Shown here: positions 15,455-43,258 of the stretch, in pieces | How the letters are laid out: each line of letters starts with the position of its first letter | How positions within the stretch are numbered: the stretch's first letter is position 1 | NCBI GenBank assembly: GCA_038231435.1 | Contig: JBBRLJ010000006.1 | Coordinates: 1 to 64,000, forward strand | From: Planctomycetota bacterium | GTDB lineage: Bacteria; Planctomycetota; UBA11346 | Length of the DNA stretch: 64,000 nucleotides | Direction: 5' to 3' | Notes under the pieces: generated by a model | Seen by the model: only the letters and a program-made list of their open reading frames with translations | Told to the model about the DNA's origin: nothing | The model's database searches: none | Program-made: the position numbers and the translations under genes

Positions 15455-15591
15455 GAAGAGGTGAAGAGGTGAAGAGGTGAAGAGGGAGGCAGAAGAGAAA
15501 TTGGGCTCGAAGGCTCGAAGGCTCGAAGGCTCGAAGGCTCGAAGGCTCGAAGGCTCGAAGGCTCGAAGGCTCGAAGGCTCGAAGGCTCGAA
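15455..15591 (+). repeat. Octamer tandem repeats (GAAGAGGT)x3 and (GGCTCGAA)x11
   Basis: Read directly at 15455-15478 and 15504-15591. Confidence 0.95.
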
Positions 15592-15740
15592 AATCGATGC
15601 CTGGGCCTGAATGCAACCCGGAGGTCTACCACAGACACCTCCCACTATTCGAGCCTCACAGCCTCCAGGCCTCCGAGCCTCTTCCGCTGTCGCCTATCGA
15701 CATCGATCACGCATCGCCGAGAATCGACGCGATTCCGACC

Positions 15741-27824: not shown

Positions 27825-30800
27825 TTATTGCGGATCGCCGTCGTAGATCTCGCTCACGGTGCGTACCACGTTCACGCCGAAGGGTGTGAAGGGCGGCTGG
27901 CCGGCGCGGTTGAGCAGGTCGCTGTTGAAGCGCTGGTCGCGTCTCGGCGGCGAGTAGGCCGACTGGCCGGCTTGCACGTTGGCGGGACTGGCGGGGACAC
28001 CGGAGAGGATGCCTCCGCGCGTGTACCCCGCCCTGCCCATGCACACCAGGCTGCCGCGGAAGTGGTAGAAGTTGCCGCCCCAGTTTTCGAGGTAGCGGAT
28101 GGCGTTGTGCACGCCGCCGCTGCCTTCGTCGCTGCCGTGGGTGGTCATGACGTCGGACGGGACGTTGTTGAGGATGGTCGACATGTGGTACCAGGTCTCG
28201 ATGCCGCCGGTCAGCGAGTCGTAGCGGATGTTGTCGTCGACCCATGCGTTGGACATCACCGCCAGGCCGTCGCAGAACACCGCGACCGGCGGGAAGTTGA
28301 TGCCCTGGATCTGGGCGCTGGTGAGCGGCGTGCCGACATATCCGGGATTGCCGCGCTGGAGCTGGGTCTGCATGTACGCCGGGGTCAGCGGGCTCGGCGG
28401 AGCCGCGAGCACCGTCAGGTCAGAGGCGTTCGGATCCGGCATGATGTTGAGGTTGCCTTTGACATAGAATTTGTTCGGCGTGATCATGGTCAGCCCCTTG
28501 ATGCGCGGGCTGGCGGCGGTGGTGCGACCACCCCAGTCGATCTTGGATGCCTGGTCGATGCGGAAGCCAGAATGGAAGCAGACATCCGGGCAATCGGGGA
28601 TGCGGTTGTTGATGCGGTTCTCGAAGAACACCGATGGCAGGGCGTTGTTCACCAGGTCGCCGCCGATGGGATCCCAGGCGCGGAAGGCTCCTTGGGGATC
28701 GGTGTAGAACGTCGGATCCCAGGTCGCGCGATAGACGGGGTGGTAGCCTCCGGCCGCGATCGCGCCGAAATGGGTGCTGGTGCGGTGCTTGCGCGCCATG
28801 TAGATCAGGCCGTTGAAGGTGTTCACGTAGTTGGCGGCGATGTAGGCCTGCACGTGGTCGAGGTTGAGCGTGAGGGTGTTCACCCAGTAGGTGCGCGGAT
28901 TCGGCGTGTTGCCTGCGACCGGTGCCGCCACCGAGGCCTGGATCGGATTGGTGATCGGCCCCTGCATGAAGAACTGGCGCACGTAGTCGGACTCGCGGCG
29001 ATCCATGATGTCGGTCTCGTAGGCGATCACCTGCGAGTACGCCGTGGCTCCCACTGCGCCGTAGGAGAAGAAGCCGGTATTGGCGGCGGCGCTGACGGTG
29101 AGGTCGACGGCAGGATTCGGGGCGTTGCCATACATCGCCGCGTACTGGCTCTTGAGGTACTGGCACAACGCACTGCCGGTATCGACCGGGAGCGCCGGCA
29201 CGGTGGCGGGGCGGGCCCTGGTCGGCCCGACCAGCACGCTGAGGGCGGGGGTATCGCCGATGAGCGGCGCGGCGCCACGGGTCAGCATGATCTCGTCGAT
29301 GACGACGCCGTCCTCGGCCATGTACATGTGCAGCACGTAATCCCCGGCCGATGGGATCACCAGGCGGGCGATGCCGCCGGCGGTGGGGGCCGAGTTGGGA
29401 GTGACCGGCGCATTGCCGCCGGTGTTCCAGCCGGTGACGCCGACCTGGAGGTTGACGTTGTCGGCCGTGGTGCGGGGATTGTTGATGTAATCGTAGGCGT
29501 ACAGCGGCGAGAAGCCGAAATGCAGCTTGTTGGAGGTCACGTTGGGACAGTTCGCGCGCACGTAGATGTTATAGGTTCCGGCGGTGTTGATGTGGATGTT
29601 GTAGTCGGCCCGGGGTGAGAAGTCGTAACGGGCGCCGGCGTTGCCGGCCGCGCATTGGGCGCGGGTGTAGCTCTTGCTGACATTGGGGTAGATCTGCAGG
29701 CCCGACCCGCCGGTGAACCCGGCGAAGGGAAGACTCTGCCAGCGCTGGATCGGCGAATTGAGCACCCCGGTGCAGGCCTGGGCATTGATCACCACCACGC
29801 CACCTACTTCGTTCGCGCACAGCTGGTTGCCGAAGATCGGCCAGAACGGCTCGGGCCTGAGCCCGTTCATCGGATCGGTGCCGGGAGACGCACTGGTGCC
29901 GTGGGGCAGCAGGCCTTCGGCCTGCAGGAAGCCGGTCCAGGCGATGGCGGTGCCATTCACGAAGGATTGGGGCCAGTAGGTCAGATCCTGGGCGTCGCGT
30001 TCGCGGATGATCAGGCCGAAGGTGCCGTCGAGCTTGGAGCCCAGGGCGTTGTCGTAGTACACGCCGACCTTCTCATTGATGTTGAAGCCGCCGGTGGTGG
30101 TGGCGCCCGTGGGAACGATGATGTCGTCGGGCTTCTGCCCGCCCTGGTTCTTGTAGATCGGCAGCGAGGTCGCGGGTACCGGCTTGCTCACCAGCACCGA
30201 GACGCCCGCCACGTACGAGCCGCTGGTCTTCGGGTAGGCGTTGGCCATCAGCATGGCGCCGACGTTGGCCGGATTGACGTACCACTCGGTGCCGTTCTTG
30301 TAGATGTCGAAAGCGGTGGCGGAACCGGCGCCGGCGGCGTCTGGATACTTGTAGAAGAGCTTCGCCGAGCCGGGGTAGCTGGTCGGATTGATGGTGATGT
30401 TGTTCGGCGCGTAGAGCGCGGCGCCGGCTAGGCTCGGGTCGATGGCGTAGATGGTCTTGGTCTTGTCGGCGAGGCGCACCGGCTCGAAGGGCCGGCCGGC
30501 GAGGTCGGGGATGTTCGACAACGTCTTGACCACGGTGGCGCCGAGGTTGATGCCGTCGCGCACGTAGGAGCCCCAACGCGCCGACAGCCGACCAGGCTCG
30601 CGGCTGTCGTTGCAGTCGGCGGCCGTGCTGCACACCAGCGACAGGTCGTTCATCTTGAACATCGTGCCGGCGCCGCCGTTGAGCGCGCTGGTTTCCGGCA
30701 CGGACATGGGATCGATGACCGGAGGCGTCTGCGAGTAGTTGTAGCTCTTGCGCTGGCGGAAGATGCCGTCGACGCCGACGATCGAGGTGGGCACGCCGAG

Positions 30801-31631
30801 ACCGCTACCCACGCCGCCGAGCTCGACGCCACCGCCATCCCCCGGCGAATTGCCGCCCGCGCCGCCGGCGAGATAGATTGCGCCGTTGGAATGCACGGCG
30901 CCGGGCACGTACATGGTCGCGCCGCCGCCGCAATGCCACTCGATGTCGCCTTCGGGGCCTTCAGCAGCGTAGAAGATCGCGTACTTGAACAGCGAGTTGA
31001 GCTTGAGCTGGACCACGCGGTTGGACTGCACCGTGGCGCGGCTGCGGTCGGGGCCAGACCACGGCATCTGCGCGTCGGTCTTGCCGCTCATGTCGAAGTT
31101 CGGGTCCTTGAGCGCCCAGGCCTCGGTGGTGATGCGATAATCGTAATAATCGTAGTTGGTCATGTAGGTGCCGTCGGATGCGGCGCCGCCGTACTGCGAG
31201 TTGAAGGCCGCCATCGTCGAGTACTGCGAGACATCGGATGGCGGATTGACAGTCCAGTTGCTGCCGCCATCAGTGACGCGGATCGGCTCGATGCGCCAGC
31301 GCACCACGCAGTCGCTCATCCATTCGATGCCGTAGTTCTGGCCGTTGTAGGCGGTGAAGTTCTCCAGCGATTTGAGGTCGTTGGTCGCGGCGCAGTTGAC
31401 CAGCTTCACCTCTTGCTCGGCGGCCACGGCTTCGGCCGCGTAGGTCGCCTTCTGCTTGTAGAGCGCGGTGTCGTACAGCCTGCGCGTGCCCAGCACCTGC
31501 TCTGAGGAGGTGGTCAGCAGGAAGGCGACCATCATCACCACGCCGAGCGTGACGACGAGGATGTTGCCGGTGCGCGTGCGCGCCGGAGCGGCGTCGTCCG
31601 TGACCACGGTATCCTTGTCGAGGATGTTCAT
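27825..31631 (-). CDS. Giant PilX-like minor pilin / pilus-associated adhesin
   Basis: RTG|NILVVTLGVV prepilin-like TM lacking Glu+5, KATYAAEA, LFKYAIFY, VHSNG, C-terminal GGVHNAIRYLENW...YSPPRR; GGAGG SD. Confidence 0.7.
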   Translation of the reverse strand: MNILDKDTVVTDDAAPARTRTGNILVVTLGVVMMVAFLLTTSSEQVLGTRRLYDTALYKQKATYAAEAVAAEQEVKLVNCAATNDLKSLENFTAYNGQNYGIEWMSDCVVRWRIEPIRVTDGGSNWTVNPPSDVSQYSTMAAFNSQYGGAASDGTYMTNYDYYDYRITTEAWALKDPNFDMSGKTDAQMPWSGPDRSRATVQSNRVVQLKLNSLFKYAIFYAAEGPEGDIEWHCGGGATMYVPGAVHSNGAIYLAGGAGGNSPGDGGGVELGGVGSGLGVPTSIVGVDGIFRQRKSYNYSQTPPVIDPMSVPETSALNGGAGTMFKMNDLSLVCSTAADCNDSREPGRLSARWGSYVRDGINLGATVVKTLSNIPDLAGRPFEPVRLADKTKTIYAIDPSLAGAALYAPNNITINPTSYPGSAKLFYKYPDAAGAGSATAFDIYKNGTEWYVNPANVGAMLMANAYPKTSGSYVAGVSVLVSKPVPATSLPIYKNQGGQKPDDIIVPTGATTTGGFNINEKVGVYYDNALGSKLDGTFGLIIRERDAQDLTYWPQSFVNGTAIAWTGFLQAEGLLPHGTSASPGTDPMNGLRPEPFWPIFGNQLCANEVGGVVVINAQACTGVLNSPIQRWQSLPFAGFTGGSGLQIYPNVSKSYTRAQCAAGNAGARYDFSPRADYNIHINTAGTYNIYVRANCPNVTSNKLHFGFSPLYAYDYINNPRTTADNVNLQVGVTGWNTGGNAPVTPNSAPTAGGIARLVIPSAGDYVLHMYMAEDGVVIDEIMLTRGAAPLIGDTPALSVLVGPTRARPATVPALPVDTGSALCQYLKSQYAAMYGNAPNPAVDLTVSAAANTGFFSYGAVGATAYSQVIAYETDIMDRRESDYVRQFFMQGPITNPIQASVAAPVAGNTPNPRTYWVNTLTLNLDHVQAYIAANYVNTFNGLIYMARKHRTSTHFGAIAAGGYHPVYRATWDPTFYTDPQGAFRAWDPIGGDLVNNALPSVFFENRINNRIPDCPDVCFHSGFRIDQASKIDWGGRTTAASPRIKGLTMITPNKFYVKGNLNIMPDPNASDLTVLAAPPSPLTPAYMQTQLQRGNPGYVGTPLTSAQIQGINFPPVAVFCDGLAVMSNAWVDDNIRYDSLTGGIETWYHMSTILNNVPSDVMTTHGSDEGSGGVHNAIRYLENWGGNFYHFRGSLVCMGRAGYTRGGILSGVPASPANVQAGQSAYSPPRRDQRFNSDLLNRAGQPPFTPFGVNVVRTVSEIYDGDPQ

Positions 31632-31651
31632 GACGAGCCTCCGGTGCGGGT

Positions 31652-32779
31652 TCAATTGGTGCCCTGGGCGCGCATCAGGCCGGCGTTGCCGAGCCAGGTG
31701 CCCAGGTTCAGGCTGTATTCGGGATCCACGGTGCTGCGCAGCGCCACCGTCGCGTCGATGCGGGATGAGACGAAGCGCGCGCCGCCGTCGACCGCCTCTT
31801 TGGACATGTAAAGCTGAATGCGCACCTGGTTGACGTTGAGCGACGACAGGGTGCGGTAGGTGTCGATGACGATGCGGTCGACGTTCTCTGAAAGGACTTC
31901 GCCCGGGACGACCACCGCGCCGGTGCCGTCGCGCCAGCGACGCTCGAGCCGGCCCTTACGGCTATTGGCGTTGGGAACAACCACGTAGGAATATTCGCGC
32001 AGGTAGTCGGGGTTGAAGCGCAGCGCGGGATTGGTGAGCGCGGTGGAGCCGGCGAAGCTCTCCATCACCATCGGCGTGTCGCCCACCACCGTCGCGGTGA
32101 CGATGTCCGGCTTCACGGTGAGCGAGGGCACCTTGACGCCATTCTTGAACTGGCTCATCGGCTGCACGCCGTCGCGCCAGTCGATGGAGCCATCGCCGAC
32201 GTCCGAGGTGCCGGACATCAAACCCCTGCTGTCGGTGGCGATCACCGCGCCGTCCCAGCGCCGATTGAAATTGACGCGCTGCGAGACGAAGCCGATGGGC
32301 GACGAGTTCGGCGGGCCGTGCTGCACGCGCAGGAAGATCAGCTCCTGGCTGGGCAGGCGGTTGGCCGCGGGCAGGGCGTTGAACCATGGGTCGGTCCACT
32401 GCAGCACGTTGGCGGCGGTGCGCTGCCAGGCGGCGAACTGGGTGCCCGCGGGGAAGCCGTTCGTGCTCTGCACCACCACGAACGGATAATAGCGCAGCAG
32501 GCGGTCCTTCGCCGGATTCAGCAGGTCGGCGAGATCGGTCGCCTTCGCCGCTGGCGGGCTGGTGCGGATGGTCACCAGCCAGGCGCTGTTGCCGAGATCG
32601 TTCACCAGCTCGCGCATCACGCGCCGGCTCTCGAGGGTGAGGTCGTTGGTGGTGGACTCGGTGCTGATGAAGCCGCGCATCGACGACAGCGACTGCAGCA
32701 CGGCGAGCATGATGATCGAAAACATGCTCATGGCGATGATGACCTCGAGCACCGAGAGGCCGCGGCGGGGGGCTGACAT
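31652..32779 (-). CDS. Type IV prepilin-like protein (PilW-like)
   Basis: RRG|LSVLEVIIAMSMFSII N-methylation motif. Confidence 0.85.
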   Translation of the reverse strand: MSAPRRGLSVLEVIIAMSMFSIIMLAVLQSLSSMRGFISTESTTNDLTLESRRVMRELVNDLGNSAWLVTIRTSPPAAKATDLADLLNPAKDRLLRYYPFVVVQSTNGFPAGTQFAAWQRTAANVLQWTDPWFNALPAANRLPSQELIFLRVQHGPPNSSPIGFVSQRVNFNRRWDGAVIATDSRGLMSGTSDVGDGSIDWRDGVQPMSQFKNGVKVPSLTVKPDIVTATVVGDTPMVMESFAGSTALTNPALRFNPDYLREYSYVVVPNANSRKGRLERRWRDGTGAVVVPGEVLSENVDRIVIDTYRTLSSLNVNQVRIQLYMSKEAVDGGARFVSSRIDATVALRSTVDPEYSLNLGTWLGNAGLMRAQGTN

Positions 32780-32781
32780 GA

Positions 32782-34284
32782 TCACTTCCTCCTCTCGAAG
32801 ACGAGTTCGTGACGACGGGTGCCCGAGCGGGTGCTGGGGGCGGCAAGGTTGGTGACGTCGTCGAGCACCGAGTCCCAGGTGATGACCACGCGGATGCCGA
32901 CCGAGCCGACGACATCGACCAGGCCGACGGTGTCGAAGTCGAAGGGCGTTTCGATGCGGCGCAGCGGGCCGGTGGTGTTGGCGGGGTCCGGGACCGCGAG
33001 CAAGTAGGTCTCGGTCGCACCGCTGACAGGCAGCACCCTGGTGGGCAGCCGCTTGGCGAAATCAGTGCGACTGGCGTGGTTGTTCACCGTGCCGTCGAAA
33101 GAGAAGATGTTCATCGCGCCGACTCCGCCGGTCGGGAAGGTATTGTAATATTCCAGGAAGATCTGCAGGTTACGCAGTCCGGGCGGATCGTGGAAAAGAC
33201 CCAGTCCACGCACCGGAGTGGCGGCGGTGTAGTCGGGATCACCCGACCAGGTAGCTCGCGCCTGCGCGTCGACGGCGGCGGTGACGGATTCGAGCGCGCA
33301 GTCGACGACCACGATCTCCTGGTAGGGCAGGCCCTGGTTGATGAACAGCGAGCGTGCGCCGCTGCCGGTGAGCGTGATGGGGGGATTGTACAGACCGGTC
33401 TGGAGCGCCGGCCCAGGAGACGCCACCGCAGTCGGGATGGCGGGCTGCGCGCCGTTCGGCGACCAGTAGACCGGACCCGGAGTGGTCCAGGCCGGATTGG
33501 GATAGACCTCGCGCCGGAACCACGACCACGGCTCCTCGGGCACGCCGAGGCGATGCCAGCTGGCGCCCTGGATGCGTTCGGCCATGAGCTGGGCGACTTC
33601 CTGCACCTTGGCGGTTTCGCGCGCAGCCTGGTGGCTCTTCCCGAGTCCGACGATGGTTCCGAACATGGTCATCAGGCACACCGCCAGGATGACGGTGGCG
33701 ACCAGCACCTCGAGGATGCTGAAGCCCTTGCGGGGGCCGCCACTCTTGGTGGTCGGCGAGCCGAACTTGGATTTGATCTGGACGACCAGGGGCCCTTGCT
33801 GCGATTTGGCGGGCTTGGGCGCCGCGATCGCGCCAACCGAACGACGACGCCAGAAGGCGACTCCCGCGGCGAATGCCGCCACGATCGCCAACGGCATCAG
33901 CAGGCTGCCCGATTCGGACTTCGCCTCATCCGCGCGCGCGGCGGCGAGTGCGGCGGCGGTGGGCGCGGGTTCGCCCGATGGACCCGTCGGCGCGGCGGGG
34001 GGTAGCGGCGGCCGCGAGGCGGTCTCCTGCTGGAGCCACGGCGGCGTGGTCTCCTCGGGCCTGGTCGGGTTCCTGGTCTCCGGAATCGCGGGCTTCGGTT
34101 TCTCGAACTGCTTGTACCAGTCATCGCGCTCCGACTTCGCGGGGATCGGCATGCCGTCGGAGTCGTACTGCGTGGGCGTCGTGGCCGTGGCCGACCAGCC
34201 GTGGTTGGCGACGACCGCGAGGACGGCCGACAGCGCCGAGGTGCGGAAGCGGACGGGGGAACGGAATGAGGCTGCGCGGGGCAT
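32782..34284 (-). CDS. Prepilin-like protein (PilV-like) with long N-terminal extension
   Basis: Internal RKG|FSILEVLVATVILAV after residue 187; signal peptide-like start, Pro-rich region and TM upstream. Confidence 0.8.
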   Translation of the reverse strand: MPRAASFRSPVRFRTSALSAVLAVVANHGWSATATTPTQYDSDGMPIPAKSERDDWYKQFEKPKPAIPETRNPTRPEETTPPWLQQETASRPPLPPAAPTGPSGEPAPTAAALAAARADEAKSESGSLLMPLAIVAAFAAGVAFWRRRSVGAIAAPKPAKSQQGPLVVQIKSKFGSPTTKSGGPRKGFSILEVLVATVILAVCLMTMFGTIVGLGKSHQAARETAKVQEVAQLMAERIQGASWHRLGVPEEPWSWFRREVYPNPAWTTPGPVYWSPNGAQPAIPTAVASPGPALQTGLYNPPITLTGSGARSLFINQGLPYQEIVVVDCALESVTAAVDAQARATWSGDPDYTAATPVRGLGLFHDPPGLRNLQIFLEYYNTFPTGGVGAMNIFSFDGTVNNHASRTDFAKRLPTRVLPVSGATETYLLAVPDPANTTGPLRRIETPFDFDTVGLVDVVGSVGIRVVITWDSVLDDVTNLAAPSTRSGTRRHELVFERRK

Positions 34285-34507
34285 GCGGATCTCCACAAGA
34301 TGATACCCGGCACGCGGGCCGGCGGCAAAGCCTGAAGGACGACCGCAGCCGGCATCGGTGATCCGTGAGGAGCGCATGATCCGAAGAGAGCACGCGGCGT
34401 ACCGAGACGATTGCTACGACTGGCCGGTTCGTGCGCTCTGTCCGGGGCGGATCTGCCCCTTCCAGGGCGGAACGGGACGTTTCGGCGCCGTCAGGCCGCC
34501 GATTGGG

Positions 34508-36286
34508 TCAGGCCTGGCGGCGGGCGGAACTGGCGAGGCGCATCCGCGTGAGGAACGCCACCGCGAACGCGATCAGGATGGCGGTTCCGGAGCCCAGGCC
34601 GCAGCCCTTGCTGCTCGAGGACGTCGGCAGGGTGCGGACGGGCGCGGTCGGAGTGGTGGTCGCGCCCGTGGTGCCCGACGGAGTGGTCGGGGTGGTCGCG
34701 ATCGGAACGCCCGAATCGGCGATGTTCACCGTGACGGATGGCCCCGTGGTGGATCCTGGCGAGGACACGTTGACGAAATCGAACGACGTCTGCATCGTGA
34801 TCACCACGGTCTCGATGGTTTCGGTCAGCGCGTCGCTGATCGCAACGATCGGAATGTCGATCGTGGTCGCCCCCGCCGGGATGGTGACAGAGCCCGACAG
34901 CGTCGCATTGTCGAGACCGGCTATGGTGTAGTCGACTCCCGGAGTCGCGCTTCCAGCCACCGTGAATGGGACCTGGACGGCCACCGGGAACGATCCGGAC
35001 AAGGTGACGCGGGCGATGCCGTTGGTGCTGCCTTCGATGGCATTGCTGATGAGGTTGATCGAGGCCGTAACGTTGTCATCGCCGATCGTCACCGTGCCGA
35101 CCGTCGGATCCAACGTCGAATAATCCGGAGATTGGACCAGTGAGCAGACGACGGTCTCGCCGCCTTCGGCGGTGGTATCGGTCAACGGGTAGATCTCGTA
35201 CTCGATCTGCCGGTATCCGGCGGGAAGATTGATGGTCAGGCGGTTGTTTCCCGTCAGATCGATGGGAATAGACGTCTGGATCTCTGCGCCGTTGAGCAGA
35301 TCGCCCGCGAGAGGCGGGAAGACCGTGAACGACCTGGTGCTGGTGACCAGGGGAGCGGGTCCGGCCGGAGCCACAGCGGAAACCTGGTAGGTTCCCGTGA
35401 CGCCCGAGAACGTGACCACGTCGCCGTTTTCGATCTGCCCGACGCCATTGCGGCTGTTGCCCACGATGATGGCGGCGGTCGTCGTACCCTTGGCATATCC
35501 GCTGGTTCCCGTGCTGCCGATCGGGGTGCCGCCGGTGACGACCCCGTTGAGCGATCGCCTGCCAGCATCCAGCAGGATGCCGGCGCCGCTGCCTGCCGGG
35601 ATGTCATGCCCATAGACGATCTGGAGCGAGTAATCTACTCCCGGTGTTGCGCTGCCGGTAAACTGCACCTGGAGATTGCGATTGAAGGTGGTCGCGGTGA
35701 AGCTGGCACGAAATACCGCGGCGCTGAACGGATCCAGCGGGGTGCCGGGCGGAGCGACGCCGGGTTCGTAGCACACCGCGATCGGGGTCTCCATGCTCGC
35801 GGTCAATTCGTCATCGAGGATGGTGATGAGCGCGACCGACGGCGTTCCGATCGTGTAGGTGAACGGCGCCGCATCCTTCACCAGGGTCAGGACGACGGAT
35901 TCGGATCCCTCTGGAAGGGCGTCATCGAACGGCTGAACGACCACATCGACATCGTCAGGGCGAAGCGGATCGGCACTCGGGAAGGTCGCCGTGCCCGACA
36001 GGGTCAGGTAATCATTGCCGCCGCCGGCCACGGGGCCGGGAGTCGCTGAGCCGGTGACGACATACAGCACCGTCAACGGACCCGTCGAGCCCGAGCGATG
36101 GATGGTGAAATGTGCGGTACCACCGCCGGCTTCCGACACCGACGCGGTCGAGGCGACTACCGAGACCTGGTCTTGGGATGACGAGGCCGCCGATAGCGAC
36201 GTCGTAGCGGCCAGGGTCAGGGCTACAGCCAGGCCGGCACGCCAGAGGGCGGAGGCGAAGGACCGGGGCGGAGTGCAAGGGATCAT
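34508..36286 (-). CDS. Calx-beta repeat surface protein with C-terminal GCGLGSG-TM-basic tail
   Basis: Signal peptide; repeated GSATPG.DY and D...EG.E(S/T)V motifs; Thr/Pro linker, SSSKGCGLGSG, TM, Arg-rich end. Confidence 0.8.
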   Translation of the reverse strand: MIPCTPPRSFASALWRAGLAVALTLAATTSLSAASSSQDQVSVVASTASVSEAGGGTAHFTIHRSGSTGPLTVLYVVTGSATPGPVAGGGNDYLTLSGTATFPSADPLRPDDVDVVVQPFDDALPEGSESVVLTLVKDAAPFTYTIGTPSVALITILDDELTASMETPIAVCYEPGVAPPGTPLDPFSAAVFRASFTATTFNRNLQVQFTGSATPGVDYSLQIVYGHDIPAGSGAGILLDAGRRSLNGVVTGGTPIGSTGTSGYAKGTTTAAIIVGNSRNGVGQIENGDVVTFSGVTGTYQVSAVAPAGPAPLVTSTRSFTVFPPLAGDLLNGAEIQTSIPIDLTGNNRLTINLPAGYRQIEYEIYPLTDTTAEGGETVVCSLVQSPDYSTLDPTVGTVTIGDDNVTASINLISNAIEGSTNGIARVTLSGSFPVAVQVPFTVAGSATPGVDYTIAGLDNATLSGSVTIPAGATTIDIPIVAISDALTETIETVVITMQTSFDFVNVSSPGSTTGPSVTVNIADSGVPIATTPTTPSGTTGATTTPTAPVRTLPTSSSSKGCGLGSGTAILIAFAVAFLTRMRLASSARRQA

Positions 36287-37217: not shown

Positions 37218-38513
37218 TTAGGGGTCGGTCATGACCGATCTGATCTCGGCCTCGCAGCACAGTTGGCCATCCACCAGGATCTTCCCCTGGCAGGCGCTCA
37301 TGCGCGAGCGCATGCGCAGGACGTCGACCTCGATGCGCAGGGTGTCGCCTGGGTGCACCGGACGGCGGAACTTCACCCGGTCCATGCTCATCAGGTAGGG
37401 GATCTTGCCTTTGTTCTCTGGCTGGCTCATCAGCAGGATCGCCCCGACCTGGGCGATCGATTCGAGCTGCAGCACGCCGGGCATCACCGGCATGCCCGGG
37501 AAGTGCCCTTGGAAGAACGGCTCGTTCACGGTCACGTTCTTGAGGCCGACGATCATCGAGCCGGGGACGTAGTCGATGATGCGGTCGACGAGCAGGAAGG
37601 GATAGCGGTGCGGCAGCAGCTCGAGCACCTTGCGGATGTCGAACACCAGCTTGGGCTTGGCAGCCGCCTCGATGCGGCGGTTGATCTCCTGGACCAGGAG
37701 CATGTTCTCGCGATGGCCAGTGCGCACCGCGATGACATGGGCGTTGAGCTTGCGGGTGGCGTGGGCGAGGTCGCCGATCAGATCGAGGATCTTGTGGCGC
37801 GCAGCCTCATCGGTGAAGCGCAACTGGTTGTCGATGACGCGGGTGCCGTCGTAGACGCAGGTGTTCTGGTAGTTCGCGCCCTTGCCCAGGCCCATGGCGC
37901 GCAGCGCCTCGACCTCCTTGGCCAGGCAGAAGGTGCGCGCGGGGGCGATCTGCTCGGCGAATGAACGCTCGTTGAGCTCGACCTCGACCACCTGGGCCCC
38001 CTTCAGGGCGCCGCCATGGTCATCCAAGGTATAGGTGATCTTGAGCCCCGCCTTGTAGGGCAGCGCGACGATCGAGTTATGGCCGTCGCTCACCGAGATC
38101 GGCTCGGTCAGGTCGAAGGTCAGGCGCGTTTCGGCCTGCTCGACGATGCCGGCGCCGTGGAGGCAGTCGACGAAGTCCTTGGCCGAGCCGTCGAGTCCGG
38201 GCAATTCCACCGCGTTCAGCTCGATGCGCAGGTTGTCGATGCCCAGGCCCTGGCAGGCGGCCAGGAAGTGCTCGGTGGTGTGGACCTCGACCTCGTGGCC
38301 GTCGACGACCGCGGCGATGGCGGTGCGGCGCATGCGCTGGCACAGCCGGCTGGGATGGGCGACGATGGCCGGCGAGCCGGCGAGATCGGTGCGAACGAAC
38401 GTCATGCCGGTGTTGGCTGCCGCCGGCTTGAACACCACCGTGCACGGTTCGCCCGAATGCAGCCCGATGCCCGAGACGCTCGCTTCCTTCGCGATGGTGC
38501 GTTGGGCGGTCAT
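37218..38513 (-). CDS. lpxC-fabZ: Bifunctional LpxC / FabZ
   Basis: QRTI, GIGLHSG, TTEHFLAA, RHKILDLIGDL, then LPHRYPFLLVDR, FFQGHFPGMPVMPGV. Confidence 0.96.
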   Translation of the reverse strand: MTAQRTIAKEASVSGIGLHSGEPCTVVFKPAAANTGMTFVRTDLAGSPAIVAHPSRLCQRMRRTAIAAVVDGHEVEVHTTEHFLAACQGLGIDNLRIELNAVELPGLDGSAKDFVDCLHGAGIVEQAETRLTFDLTEPISVSDGHNSIVALPYKAGLKITYTLDDHGGALKGAQVVEVELNERSFAEQIAPARTFCLAKEVEALRAMGLGKGANYQNTCVYDGTRVIDNQLRFTDEAARHKILDLIGDLAHATRKLNAHVIAVRTGHRENMLLVQEINRRIEAAAKPKLVFDIRKVLELLPHRYPFLLVDRIIDYVPGSMIVGLKNVTVNEPFFQGHFPGMPVMPGVLQLESIAQVGAILLMSQPENKGKIPYLMSMDRVKFRRPVHPGDTLRIEVDVLRMRSRMSACQGKILVDGQLCCEAEIRSVMTDP

Positions 38514-38556
38514 GCGGGCTCTCGCCTGGATGGCGGCGCGCGGCGTGCGGCAGTCC

Positions 38557-39627
38557 TCACGGCTTCTTCCCTAATTCCGCCAGGCGCTTCTCGAGCTCCG
38601 AGACCCGCGCCAGCAGCTCCTTCACTTGCGCCTGGGTACCAGGTAGCCGGCGCAACGCGATCTCGGACGCCTGCGCGGATTTGATCTCCTGCGCCGGGAT
38701 GCCGCGCACCACCATCTTCGGCGGCACGCTCTTCGACACGCCGGACATGGCGGTGACGATCGCCTGGTCACCGATGGTGACGTGGCCGACGATGCCGGCC
38801 TGGCCGGCGATGGTCACGTGGTTGCCGAGGCGCGTCGAGCCGGCGATGCCCACCTGCGAGATGACGATGCAGTGGCTGCCGGTCTCGACGTTGTGGGCGA
38901 TCTGCACCAGGTTGTCGATCTTGGTTCCCTTGCCGATCTTGGTCTTGCCGAAGCGCGCGCGGTCGATCGCGGTGTTGGCGCCGATCTCGACGTCGTCCTC
39001 GACGACCACGGTGCCGACTTGTGGGATCTTGTGGTGCACGCCCTCGACCGAGGCGTAGCCGAAGCCGTCCGAGCCGATGACCGCCCCGCTGTGGACGATC
39101 ACGCGGCTGCCGAGCCGACAGCGCTCGCGGATGCTCACCTGCGGGTAGATCAGGCAGTCGCTGCCCAGCGCGGCCTCGACGCCGATATAGACGTGGGGGT
39201 AGAGGATGGTGTTGTCGCCGATCTCGGCCTGGTCGCCGATGACCACGTAGGCGCCGATCGCGACGTTCTTGCCCAGGCGCACGCGCTCGCCGATCACGGC
39301 CGTGGCATGCACGCCCGGCGGCGGCGGAACCGCCCGCGGCCCGAAGGTGGCGACCACCTTGGCGAAGGCGAAATCCGCGTTCGCGACCACGATCTGCGCG
39401 AGCGAGCCTCCGCGGCTGGCGGCCTCGGGCTGCGCCGCGGTGACCAGCACCGCGGTGGCGCGGGTCTCGGCCACGTACTGCGCGTACTTGGGATTGGCCA
39501 GGAAGCTGATGTCGCCGGGGCTCGCCTCGCTGAGGCTGGAGATGCCGGTGATCACCTGGTCGCCATCGCCGATCACGGTGCCGCCGACGACCCCGGCGAT
39601 GTCGCGCACGGTCACCCGCATGGTCAT
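38557..39627 (-). CDS. lpxD: UDP-3-O-acylglucosamine N-acyltransferase
   Basis: ISFLANPKY, hexapeptide repeats, [24 protein letters not shown]. Confidence 0.96.
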
Positions 39628-40352
39628 TTTGGCGGTGCCGGAGCCGGCGCCGGTTCCTTGGTCCCGTTGGAAACCGGATCCTTGGGCGTCGCGTCCTTCG
39701 CTGGCGCATCCTTCGCCGGCGCATCCTTGGATACGGGCTCCTTGGTGCTCTCGGCGATCCAGCGTTCATTCAGGTACTGGATGAACGCGTCGGTGATGTC
39801 GAGCGACGGATCGAAGTAGAGCACCGACTGCGCGAACAACTGCTGGTTGATGTCCATGTTGCTGTTGGCGTTGATCTCAGGATTCGGAGCGAGGTGCACA
39901 AGCTTGATGCCGCGCTCCTGGCAGAACACCTGCAGATTGCCGCGCAGCGTCGCGTACGAATCCTTCACCAGGGCCGCGCGCTGGCGGGCGATGTCCAGGT
40001 TGCCGCGCTCGACCATCATCTTCTCGCGCTGGCGCGTGAGCTCGAAGTCCATCTTCAGGTCGGCGAAGGCCTTGCTGTCCTCCTTCATCACCTGGAGCTT
40101 GGACTCGAGATCCGCGAGGTGCTCCTCCATCTTCTTGATCTCGACCTGGCCCTCGGCGACGACCTGCTTGAGCTTGTCCATGCCCCCGGTGTAGAGCTTG
40201 AACGCCATCAGCGTGTCCTCGAGCCGCAGCACTGCGATGCGCGGCGCCTCGGGCTTGGACTCCACCGCCCGGGCGACCGTCGCGCAGCACAGGCTCAGCG
40301 CCATCGCCAACATGAACGGCATCGGGAACAGGGTCGTGCTCATCGCTCGCAT
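39624..40352 (-). CDS. skp: OmpH/Skp outer membrane chaperone
   Basis: Between bamA and lpxD; signal peptide, RIAV, coiled coil, VLY...DIT. Confidence 0.8.
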
Positions 40353-40413
40353 GGTCGGTCCTTCGGGGTCGCCGGATGCTAGACCGGGCCCCCGCATGGT
40401 CCAGCGCGGCCCG

Positions 40414-40678
40414 CCCCCTTCTGCAGACAGGGCTGCCAGCCGCCGCAGGCGGCTGAGTCGGCGCGCCCCGCGACGACCAAGCGCGCAGCGCGCAGCGGCC
40501 CGTTCTGTCTCCGCGTGCGCGGGTAACGCCTCGACAGCGCAATGGGGGGCAGCGCCGAAGGCGCGTTGATGGGGGGATCGTCCTCGATCCCCCCATCTGC
40601 AGACAGAGCTGCCAGCCGGCGCAGGCGGCTGAGTCGACGCGCCCCGCGACGACCAAGCGCGCAGCGCGCAGCAGCCCG
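40414..40678. repeat. Structured repeat family B: two direct copies around a central hairpin module
   Basis: 40414-40502 and 40590-40678 near-identical; central 40543-40595 resembles the reverse complement of the 54581 and 56526 repeats. Confidence 0.85.
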
Positions 40679-40685
40679 CGAAGTC

Positions 40686-43109
40686 CTAGAAGCGGATGTT
40701 CCCCAGCCCGAAATGCACCTGCGTCTGCGACTCGCCGTAGCCCGGATTCACCAGCCACGCGAAGTCGAGCGCGACCGGGATCTGGATCGGGAAGCGGATG
40801 CCGAAGCCGAAGGCGGTGCGCAGATCGTGGAAGTCGACCGCCTGCTCCTGCCCCCACACGTTGCCGCAGTCCGCGAAGACGATGGCACGCACGCCTTCGT
40901 TGGTCATCTGCACCGGCACCGAGAGCTCGAGCGTGGCCAGCGCGTTGCGCGTGCCGCCGTAGCGGGTCAGGAAACCGTTGGCGTTGATCTGCTCGGGGCT
41001 GAGGTCGTCGTAGTCGAAGCCGCGATGGCGCGGCGCCGGTCCACCGTCGCGGTAGCGCTGGTAGAACGGCACGGTGGGCGAGGAATCGATCGGGTCTTCC
41101 TGGCGCCAACGCCCGGACAGTCGGAAGTAGGTCACGCCGCCGTCCTCGAACTCCGCCACCGGCAGGAAACCGTCGCCCTTGCCGGTGAGCTCGGTGTAGT
41201 TCGCCGACGAATCCATGACGTCGCCGGTGACGCTCTCGGACGCGCTGAGCTGGTAACCCGAGGTCGGACTGTTGCGGTCCGGCTTCAAACGATCGTAGCT
41301 CTGGCCGAGCGTCCAGGTGTTGAGGAAGTAGTGCCCTCCCACCGCGTCATCCGCCGCGGTCGGCAGCACGTTGGTGATCTTCAGGTCGGTGTAGTTGTAT
41401 CCGAGACTGAGGCTCAACCGGTTGTTGAGGAAGTAGCGCCCGGCCGTTCCGGAAGTGGAGATGCGCACCTCGTCCCACTCGCGCAGCGTCGAGTCGCTGC
41501 GGCTGATGGTGCCGGACAGCGAGTAGGGGCCGTCGAGGACATGCGGATTCGTCCAGCTGGTCGACACCGACTTGGCTGGTTTCGACCAACTCGCCTGGAA
41601 TTCGAGGGTCTGGTTGGCGCCCCGGAAATGGTCGATGCCGCCGGTGACGAATCCGAGCAGGTCGAAGTTGCGTTCGGTATAGCCGAGCGAGCCGAAGATC
41701 TTGGTCGCCGAGCTGTAGCCCACCTGGAAATTCAGCGAGCCGGTGCTCTCCTCGTCGACGTTCACGATCAGGTCCGCCTCGTCCGGCCGGTCGTCGGGGA
41801 AATCCGGCTCGATCGCCAGGGGGCGCGGCAGGCCAGCCTTGAACACGCCGGTTCGCCGCACCTGGTCGAGCGATTCGTCCTTGGCGTCGTCGTTCCACAG
41901 ATCGCCTGGATGCAGGAACATCGCGCGCCGAACCACCGCATCGCGGGTATGCTCGTTGCCGTGCACATCGACGCGGCCGATCTTGTATTTGCGGCCTTCG
42001 AAGACGTGCAGCACCAGGTCGACGATGTGGTTCTTCACGTCCAGCCGGCGGTCGACGCGCAGATCGCAGCGCGCGTAGCCCTGGTTGCTGATTACCCGCC
42101 GCGAATGCTCGATCGCGCCCTTGTCGCCGCCCGGACGCGGCTCTCCGTAGAGGTCGTCGCGCTTGTACCAGGCCCCCTCGGGCATGCCGAAGGCCGAGCG
42201 CATCTGCTCCTGCGTCGCCACCGTGTTGTCGACGAAGCCGACCTTGCCGAGCCGATAGCGCTCGCCGGGCTCCACGATGTAGGTGAGCACCATGCGGTCG
42301 TTGTAGTAGCCGTCCGGGGCGAATTCCGGCCCGTGGCGCCGCCGTTCCTCGACCGGACGCACGTAGTCGGCCACCTCACGGCGGGTCTCGATCAGCCGCG
42401 CGTCGAGCCAGCCGAGATCCTGGAGCTTGCGCACCACCGCCTCTTGGTCGATCTGGACCAGTTCTGGCTGGTACGCGGCGCCGCGCGGCATCAGCAGCAC
42501 CTTGTCGATGACGCGCGGGCGCGCGCCGTCGGGCAGGCCGATGTAGTTGACCTGCGCGACCTTCACCTCCTGCCCGAGGTTGACCGAGAAGACCACGCTG
42601 ATCGAGCCGCGGTCCTCGTTCTGGTCGGTATGCACGCGGCACCAGCGATCGCCGCGGTCCTGGAACAGGCGCTCGAGGGCGCGACGGTCGTTCTCGAGCA
42701 GCAGCTCGTTGAGATAGCTGCCGGACCTGGTGGTCACCACCTTCTCGGCCTTCTCCTTGTCGAAGTAGTCGAGGCCTTCGAAGGCGACCTTGGCGACGTA
42801 CGGCAGTTCACGGAAGCGGTAGACGACGGTGACCTCGCGCCCGTCATCGCTGCGGCGGAGCTCGCTGCGGGTGCCGGTGAACGGCCCCATGGTCTCGATC
42901 GCGCGCACGTCGTCGGCCACCGCTTCGTGCAGCTGGCGCTCGGTGTAGGTCTTGGTCGAGCGCACCTCGAGCAGGAAGCGGATGCGCTCCTGGTTCACGT
43001 GGTGGTTGCCTTCGACGATGACGTCCTTCACGACCAGCGTCGGATCCGCGGCGAAAGCGGCCGCGCAAGCGAGGCTGGGAAGCAGGAACGTCAGCCTCAG
43101 TGCGGCCAA
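40686..43109 (-). CDS. bamA: Outer membrane protein assembly factor BamA
   Basis: POTRA repeats ([19 protein letters not shown]), [16 protein letters not shown] loop, terminal F; TTG start uncertain. Confidence 0.93.
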
Positions 43110-43258
43110 AGGCTCTCCGGGGAGCCGGGATGGTAGGCGAGACCCGCCCGGGGCAAGACGGGGCGGGTCGTGGAGCACCGATGAGCCGGGTCCGGCCATT
43201 CCGGAGCGGCGCCGGCCAGAATCCATTCCGGCCCACTTGGGGCGCGCTAGCGTCGAGC

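Follow-up and report, generated by a model that had tools for sequence, protein, structure and literature searches.

A 500-residue open reading frame (ORF) in the window, by which we mean the whole 64,000-nucleotide stretch of Planctomycetota DNA that was analysed, appears to fuse a predicted single-pass inner-membrane protein to a GspI/PilV-like minor pilin, and its product is likely a variant of the type IV prepilin whose leader is a protein in its own right. Judged from the sequence around the site, the prepilin peptidase PilD very probably cleaves this precursor between Gly187 and Phe188 (Table 1), and we regard as probable the full model in which the membrane protein so released has a function of its own.

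Table 1. Coordinates in the window of the fused precursor, its parts and the neighbouring cassette genes
Feature	Position	Strand	Basis
Ribosome-binding-like GGAG, 6 nt 5' of ATG 34284	34291..34294	(-)	
Fused precursor ORF (P0001), 500 aa	32782..34284	(-)	codon signature; 0 differences from a second run's contig across 33490-34381
Sec signal peptide (predicted), aa 1-34, with basic n-region, h-region at aa 16-26 and A-T-A in the c-region	34183..34284	(-)	heuristic hydropathy
Pro/Ala-rich spacer, predicted periplasmic, aa 35-125	33910..34182	(-)	layout also found in P0002 and P0003
TM1 (aa 126-144), a predicted stop-transfer helix with WRRR after it	33853..33909	(-)	hydropathy 2.07; net charge -1 before, +3 after
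Predicted cytoplasmic linker, aa 145-187, ending in RKG	33724..33852	(-)	
In-frame CTG (Leu166) with weak AAGG upstream, sole candidate internal start	33787..33789	(-)	
Class III site Gly187/Phe188 with Glu192 and pilin hydrophobic helix	33661..33726	(-)	PF07963 and TIGR02532 above cut-off
Mature minor pilin of 313 aa (predicted) in the first, GspI/PilV-like slot of the cassette	32785..33723	(-)	
Second prepilin, PilW/GspJ-like slot, ordinary 7-aa leader	31652..32785	(-)	PRK10557 E 2.8e-5; overlaps first gene's stop
Third cassette gene, 1276 aa, PilX/GspK-like slot (name inferred)	27825..31655	(-)	position and Glu-less N-terminal hydrophobic stretch

Re-reading of the frame upheld the first-pass annotation in its basic claim of a 187-residue leader within a single ORF, with the Phe codon at 33723-33721 specifying residue 188 in the motif RKG↓FSILE and Glu at +5. 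As in type IV prepilins (IPR012902/PF07963), Gly at -1 is followed by Phe at +1, Glu at +5 and a 21-residue hydrophobic helix (20-25 hydrophobic residues being the usual criterion), with a basic residue at -3 and PilD encoded in the genome; the match to PF07963 at residues 185-207 scores 22.2 bits against a cut-off of 21.2, and that of the precursor to TIGR02532 scores 19.5 against 16.3. The departure lies in the leader. Known prepilin leaders are hydrophilic, cytoplasmic and 6-26 aa long (PMC4471445), and the training pilins of PilFind have the motif strictly within their first 35 residues (PMC3244431), whereas the leader here is 187 aa long (140-417 in relatives), includes a TM helix and, by prediction, a Sec signal, and is coding throughout. 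Codon usage of the leader is gene-like in every part and that of the DNA before ATG 34284 is not: GC3 is 0.88 overall and 0.79-0.91 across the parts, and the synonymous-codon score of the whole leader (0.115) compares with 0.137 +/- 0.078 in genes, -0.32 out of frame and -0.10 in the DNA 5' of the ATG. Among nine candidate starts checked, GGAG, AGGA or GAGG occurs only at ATG 34284. The genome holds 70 matches to PF07963, and for the 65 whose sites a script could place (five were missed by its pattern) the median distance from the site to the nearest start codon is 11 codons, the fused ORF being the extreme at 53; it alone among these has a coding-like upstream frame with a strong hydrophobic segment. 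Two other prepilins of the same genome (contig C9, 95944, and contig C16, 34116, both on the (+) strand) have their nearest standard start 41 and 33 codons off, with no TM helix, and may possibly use non-standard starts.

The fusion recurs in relatives, as the first-pass annotation had proposed to check. The two nearest homologs (39-40% identical) keep the same order of signal, spacer, TM helix, linker and site with 193-aa leaders, and the layout is found in many further relatives. The pilin-slot family is present in 38 of the 48 genomes of the bacterial family. Classification of 54 of the 63 listed places of this family (the nine omitted being the weakest matches, one that was duplicated, one that was truncated and the second stretch of an ORF), together with six metagenome loci, gave 11 long leaders, one case at a contig edge and 48 short leaders, to which one more fused copy (L073) was later added. 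A profile of the mature domain beginning at residue -3, from which leaders were thus excluded, was then searched against 1.84 billion representatives; among the best 150, the only ones analysed, the site lies at least 70 residues in for 30, leaders are 4-54 aa in 105, and 15 are truncated. The 30 comprise 26 complete signal-TM-linker forms, two fragments and two without a TM helix, the last probably with miscalled starts. Searching with a profile of the full-length alignment yielded nothing further, and the same-genus genomes G001 (61% complete) and G002 (79%) yielded no clear ortholog. The 26 complete forms and P0002 make up the fused set (n = 27), with leaders of 140-417 aa and cytoplasmic linkers of 36-271 aa. 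Gly or Ala at -1, Phe or Leu at +1 and Glu at +5 are each present in 27 of 27, and Lys or Arg at -3 in 67% of fused and 67% of short forms, while Gly or Ala at positions -2 to -10 of the fused forms reaches 0-44%; these site counts are slightly biased, for the profile held -3 to -1 and Glu+5 was used to place the site, and related sequences are not independent. One member of the window's own clade (L033:2-70), cut at a contig edge, has an ATG at the codon equivalent to Leu166 and Val in place of Glu at +5, and may be a short-leader form. At short-leader loci such as L006, L013, L016, L019 and L010, L018, L023, L065 the cassette often stands right behind a gene whose translation reads by eye like glutamate-semialdehyde aminotransferase or a PilT-like ATPase.

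The topology proposed in the first-pass annotation (out, TM, in, cut, TM, out) is also the one towards which heuristic prediction leans, in which an exported N-terminus followed by TM1 would leave the site cytoplasmic. The signal-peptide heuristic gives an h-region of 2.35, an n-region of +4 and A-T-A for the window precursor, weaker values than in its homologs. An N-terminal hydrophobic stretch occurs in 27 of 27 fused forms as against 468 of 1632 ORFs of the genome, and net charge rises across TM1 in 23 of 27 when windows of 10 residues are compared and in 14-16 of 27 with windows of 20, a heuristic measure only. The SESGSLL...WRRR segment and the basic linker of about 40 aa that follows are both present as described earlier, but the label 'sorting-signal-like' gains no support: the segment is internal, no NCBIfam model, those for PEP-CTERM and GlyGly-CTERM sorting included, matched the protein or the leader, and it is better called a stop-transfer TM helix. 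Against Pfam and NCBIfam no leader gave a family above cut-off. The linker of the window precursor and those of P0002 and P0003 have in common a motif P-hydrophobic-x-hydrophobic-x-I. Cytoplasmic tails are 12% Thr, and Thr-x-x-Ile motifs within them were considered as candidate phospho-docking sites from sequence. The longest fused leader (P0013, 417 aa) apparently carries two copies of an ITIR/ITVR strand motif in its cytoplasmic part.

In some relatives the leader is a gene of its own. A profile of the leaders of genus g7 identified 11 places in 5 of the 48 genomes, and at two of them (L054/L075 and L057/L076) the leader is encoded as a separate ORF, of 249 and 233 aa respectively. At L054 and L057, 128-132 nt separate the end of the stand-alone ORF from the Phe codon of the pilin that follows, which has a short leader itself; the stand-alone proteins share with the fused forms a coiled-coil-like segment, the TM helix, NATITIRN and a final DRL..V.VKPGT, a motif which in the fused forms runs directly into G↓F. 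Residues 6-243 of the fused protein P0065, whose site lies at 251/252, match the L057 stand-alone protein (45%, E 2e-51) to within about 8 residues of the cut, and residues 247-530 match the L057 pilin (61%, E 3e-110). In genome G015 all three slot paralogs have, immediately before the pilin start, a stand-alone gene for signal, TM helix and tail, in one case with an ATGA overlap. The product of one of these genes (at L043) and the fused leader of L034/P0016 are homologs, by phmmer at E 2e-10 in a set of 36 sequences and by BLASTP at only E 0.002. For two leader families, then, represented by P0065 against L057/L054 and by P0016 against L043, both halves exist separately elsewhere with the boundary at the cut. 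Such a stand-alone gene lies upstream at 5 of the 48 short-leader loci, the remainder having unrelated genes or too little sequence. The first-pass annotation had reckoned that homologs consisting of two separate genes would speak against its proposal; they do exist in some relatives, but because the separate gene is the leader itself, a membrane protein ending near the cut point, they strengthen the polyprotein reading instead. The L054 pilin has an atypical Thr at +1 (ARSA↓TTIVE, site at 640 (-)).

A tree of the mature domain (81 rows: 29 fused, 5 split and 47 other, with the first 45 short representatives only; quick LG+G4) requires 10 changes of the fused state, at least 3 of which well-supported branches make unavoidable, and rejects a single clade of fused forms (p-AU 1.2e-9). 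An earlier and weaker tree of 30 rows (also quick LG+G4) gave p 0.038 for a single origin of all fused forms and did not reject the window clade joined with g7 (p 0.064). Since the fused forms are not one clade, fusion or fission has recurred. One split pair is nested among fused forms, its exclusion from them being rejected (p 0.006), which suggests a fission with both halves kept.

The window's own leader significantly matches neither a stand-alone protein nor the g7 leaders. In 47 genomes of the family, most of them 60-95% complete, no stand-alone relative of it was found; a word-limited comparison of this low-complexity query with proteins of 102-338 aa gave none at E 0.1 or better; its profile has no match to the leaders of L002, L043, L060 and P0011/14/18/47 that is significant over local shuffles, and hhalign assigns a probability of 1.9 to its match with the g7 leaders. 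A 'WL' periplasmic motif and a post-TM beta-strand seen by eye to be common to these leaders were considered as signs of homology and dropped, the profile matches not being significant. By rough pairwise estimates dN/dS is 0.52-0.83 in the window-clade leader, 0.30-0.60 in the mature part and 0.30-0.46 in the g7 leaders, and selection on the window-clade leader is weak. Because this leader matches no stand-alone protein, the split/fused argument reaches it by analogy from two other leader families, with which it has only its layout in common. The strongest of the alternatives, which we nevertheless regard as unlikely, is that cleavage occurs, but the leader in the window lineage is the decayed remnant of an old neighbour gene, which targets the chain to Sec and is then degraded. 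Such a remnant would explain a low-complexity leader only 26-27% identical among close homologs, its dN/dS of 0.5-0.8, a cytoplasmic tail of the shortest class (36-64 aa) and the lack of such a gene upstream, as far as the sequence was examined, at 43 of 48 short-leader loci. Yet signal, a spacer of about 90 aa, TM helix and linker are all kept while the mature domains are about 48% identical, a short leader would target equally well, and the g7 leader is both conserved and persists as its own gene.

A start within the ORF would give the pilin a short leader. ATG, GTG and TTG are missing in frame between TM1 and the motif, as had been claimed, the nearest lying at -58, -56 and -53 codons inside the TM1 helix and being the only ones within 60 codons of the site. 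For translation starting closer to the motif, which would have undone the first-pass proposal, the only candidate is the CTG at -22 codons (33789). On that reading the pilin would come mostly from this codon, with a 22-aa leader, and the long chain would be minor read-through of two once-separate genes. The AAGG lies 4 nt before the CTG, L033 has its ATG at the same codon, the residues from the CTG to the site resemble an ordinary leader of the family (4-54 aa), and 11 of 27 fused forms have a Met 35 residues or fewer from the site. Both close homologs have TTC at that codon, however; the Mets of the other fused forms are scattered over positions 4-35, with none in 16 of 27; and with a stop-free upstream frame the long chain would be made anyway and would still end in a cleavable pilin. 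We give this reading a low probability, below that of a decayed leader.

Lower again we place the alternative raised in the first-pass annotation itself, that the chain remains uncut, or is cut only on a signal, and that a pilin tethered by TM1 gates or nucleates pilus initiation. A membrane-held leader could hinder access of PilD, linkers of relatives extend to 271 aa with conserved motifs, and regulated cleavage would be an effective gate, for an uncut pilin fails to assemble (10.1101/2022.05.13.491915). The tether is disfavoured by Gly or Ala at -1 (27 of 27) and the basic residue at -3 being as conserved as in short forms, and by split relatives, nested among the fused ones, which work without any tether. 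An assembly error or recently lost stop codon joining two genes, to which the stop/start overlaps of split relatives (ATGA in L002), fusable by one indel, might point, is effectively refuted by the fusion being common to homologs at 40% identity and by contigs of two further runs of the same study (in which one run may be the source), which show 0 differences, the X2 contig spanning the whole leader and the site and the third run's contigs covering the region piecewise. The polyprotein reading, in which the precursor yields an anchored peptide and a PilV-like pilin, is supported over all of these by the conserved fusion, the kept cleavage determinants and the predicted topology.

The pilin half occupies the place of the minor pilins GspI/PilV/XcpV of the GspIJK (PilVWX) priming complex, being the first of three coupled genes with I-, J- and K-like slots, and the same three-gene order was seen in all eight related loci inspected (L031, L032, L034, L050, L056, L057, L060 and L068). 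It differs from them in its 313-aa mature domain with large insertions, in its membrane-protein leader and in its best family match, TIGR02523 (PilV), which at 26.4 bits is under the cut-off of 52.2; NF047828 (XpsI) gives 18.9 against 150. In an AF2 model of the mature domain (pLDDT 69), alpha1 is a helix of 51 residues (6-56); the three best VIA structure rows are pilins at Z 4.6 or less, with GspI (3ci0_I) and EpsI (2ret_A) among the top rows as weak matches (Z 3.6-4.1), and Foldseek with the same model returned no match. In the ESM Atlas the whole protein matched only unnamed or N_methyl clusters, at 0.86, and one g7 leader gave no usable match. As the PilV match is under cut-off, structural Z scores are low and Foldseek is empty, the fused pilin is GspI/PilV-like by slot and not by family membership. 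The third gene has no Glu+5, a GH115_C-like match above cut-off at 616-795 and a weak HpsA-like C-terminal match, and is likely an adhesin-bearing subunit of the K/X slot.

The genome encodes a prepilin peptidase (PilD) with both Asp motifs, its single match to PF01478, in contrast to the 70 prepilin motifs, together with two strong PilM matches, 5 secretin genes, several PilC and 5 PilT above cut-off. Directly upstream of the fused gene (34508-36286 (-)) lies a secreted-looking Calx-beta protein of 592 aa, absent from that place in L031 and L032, whose C-terminus (a Ser-rich GCGLGSG, a TM helix and basic residues) resembles an unnamed sorting signal and has no NCBIfam match. Further on (37218-43226 (-)), an LpxC-FabZ fusion (Pfam) and adjoining genes reading by eye like LpxD, Skp and BamA mark a diderm envelope. 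A short tandem repeat at 15477-15600 (+) consists of four RRLEGSKA-like units at an ORF start.

Taken as a polyprotein, the precursor would be processed as follows. The frame is open and coding all the way from ATG 34284 to beyond the class III motif. Residues 35-125 are predicted to be exported by Sec, with signal peptidase I taking off the signal peptide; TM1 would halt transfer and leave the 43-aa linker in the cytoplasm, and the pilin helix would re-insert N-in/C-out. According to a 2023 review (PMC10191384), PilD cleaves after Gly or Ala at the cytoplasmic face without help from other pilus proteins; with its determinants conserved it would be expected to cut here on the cytoplasmic face and could methylate Phe188. 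The piece of about 150 aa released in this way would correspond, by comparison with split relatives, to the protein that other members of the family encode by a stand-alone gene ahead of the pilin. The least certain step is that this piece would be a cassette-specific accessory needed at about 1:1 with the priming pilin, a stoichiometry, like co-insertion, that fusion would fix. It might then be an adaptor whose cytoplasmic beta-strand motif docks the tip cassette on a shared type IV machine; gene linkage and the conserved cytoplasmic motif point that way, and we put the adaptor role forward tentatively, as a possibility short of an even chance. That the prepilin peptidase acts as a polyprotein-processing protease, the accessory being repeatedly fused and split since PilD makes the two states equivalent and the released leader being a functional membrane protein, is a proposal towards which we lean slightly.

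We know of no PilD substrate with a membrane-tethered leader, and a full-text literature search, with subscription papers largely outside it and supplements excluded, found no prepilin with a membrane-spanning leader. Pilus accessory proteins of the FimV/HubP type are single-pass, with a signal peptide, a periplasmic part, one TM helix and a low-complexity cytoplasmic tail. The leaders resemble these in layout only, the periplasmic part being coiled-coil-like in genus g7; they are much smaller, lack LysM or TPR and have no Pfam or NCBIfam match to such families. The fbcH precursor of Bradyrhizobium cytochrome b-c1 is reportedly a polyprotein in which, likewise, a single chain carries two membrane proteins that have their own genes elsewhere, and a housekeeping signal peptidase separates them; that cut is said to be periplasmic and made by signal peptidase I, whereas the cut proposed here would be cytoplasmic, made by prepilin peptidase, and recurs across a gene family. 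Modular pilins such as PilB and PilC of Streptococcus sanguinis also have an unrelated module grafted onto a pilin (PMC10191384), but their grafts are periplasmic or extracellular and stay on the pilus, while the graft in the window is N-terminal to the cut and would be released. As a possible precedent for a functional leader we weighed the signalling peptide of Caulobacter PilA, but rejected it, since that peptide is the TM helix (PMC7196804).

A class III signal is by definition N-terminal, its leader short and discarded; the window precursor departs from that definition. If precursors of this kind are cut, annotation misses internal class III sites, and PilD tolerates leaders of up to about 400 residues that are tethered in the membrane; this would constrain models of substrate engagement, a step described as poorly understood in the 2023 review (PMC10191384). 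Pairs that occur in nature as fused and split forms make it easy to ask by experiment whether leaders can do work of their own, and they point towards an accessory protein, as yet unnamed, that goes with certain pilus-tip cassettes in bacteria carrying some 70 prepilins. With such a layout a membrane protein and a pilin might simply be co-produced at 1:1.
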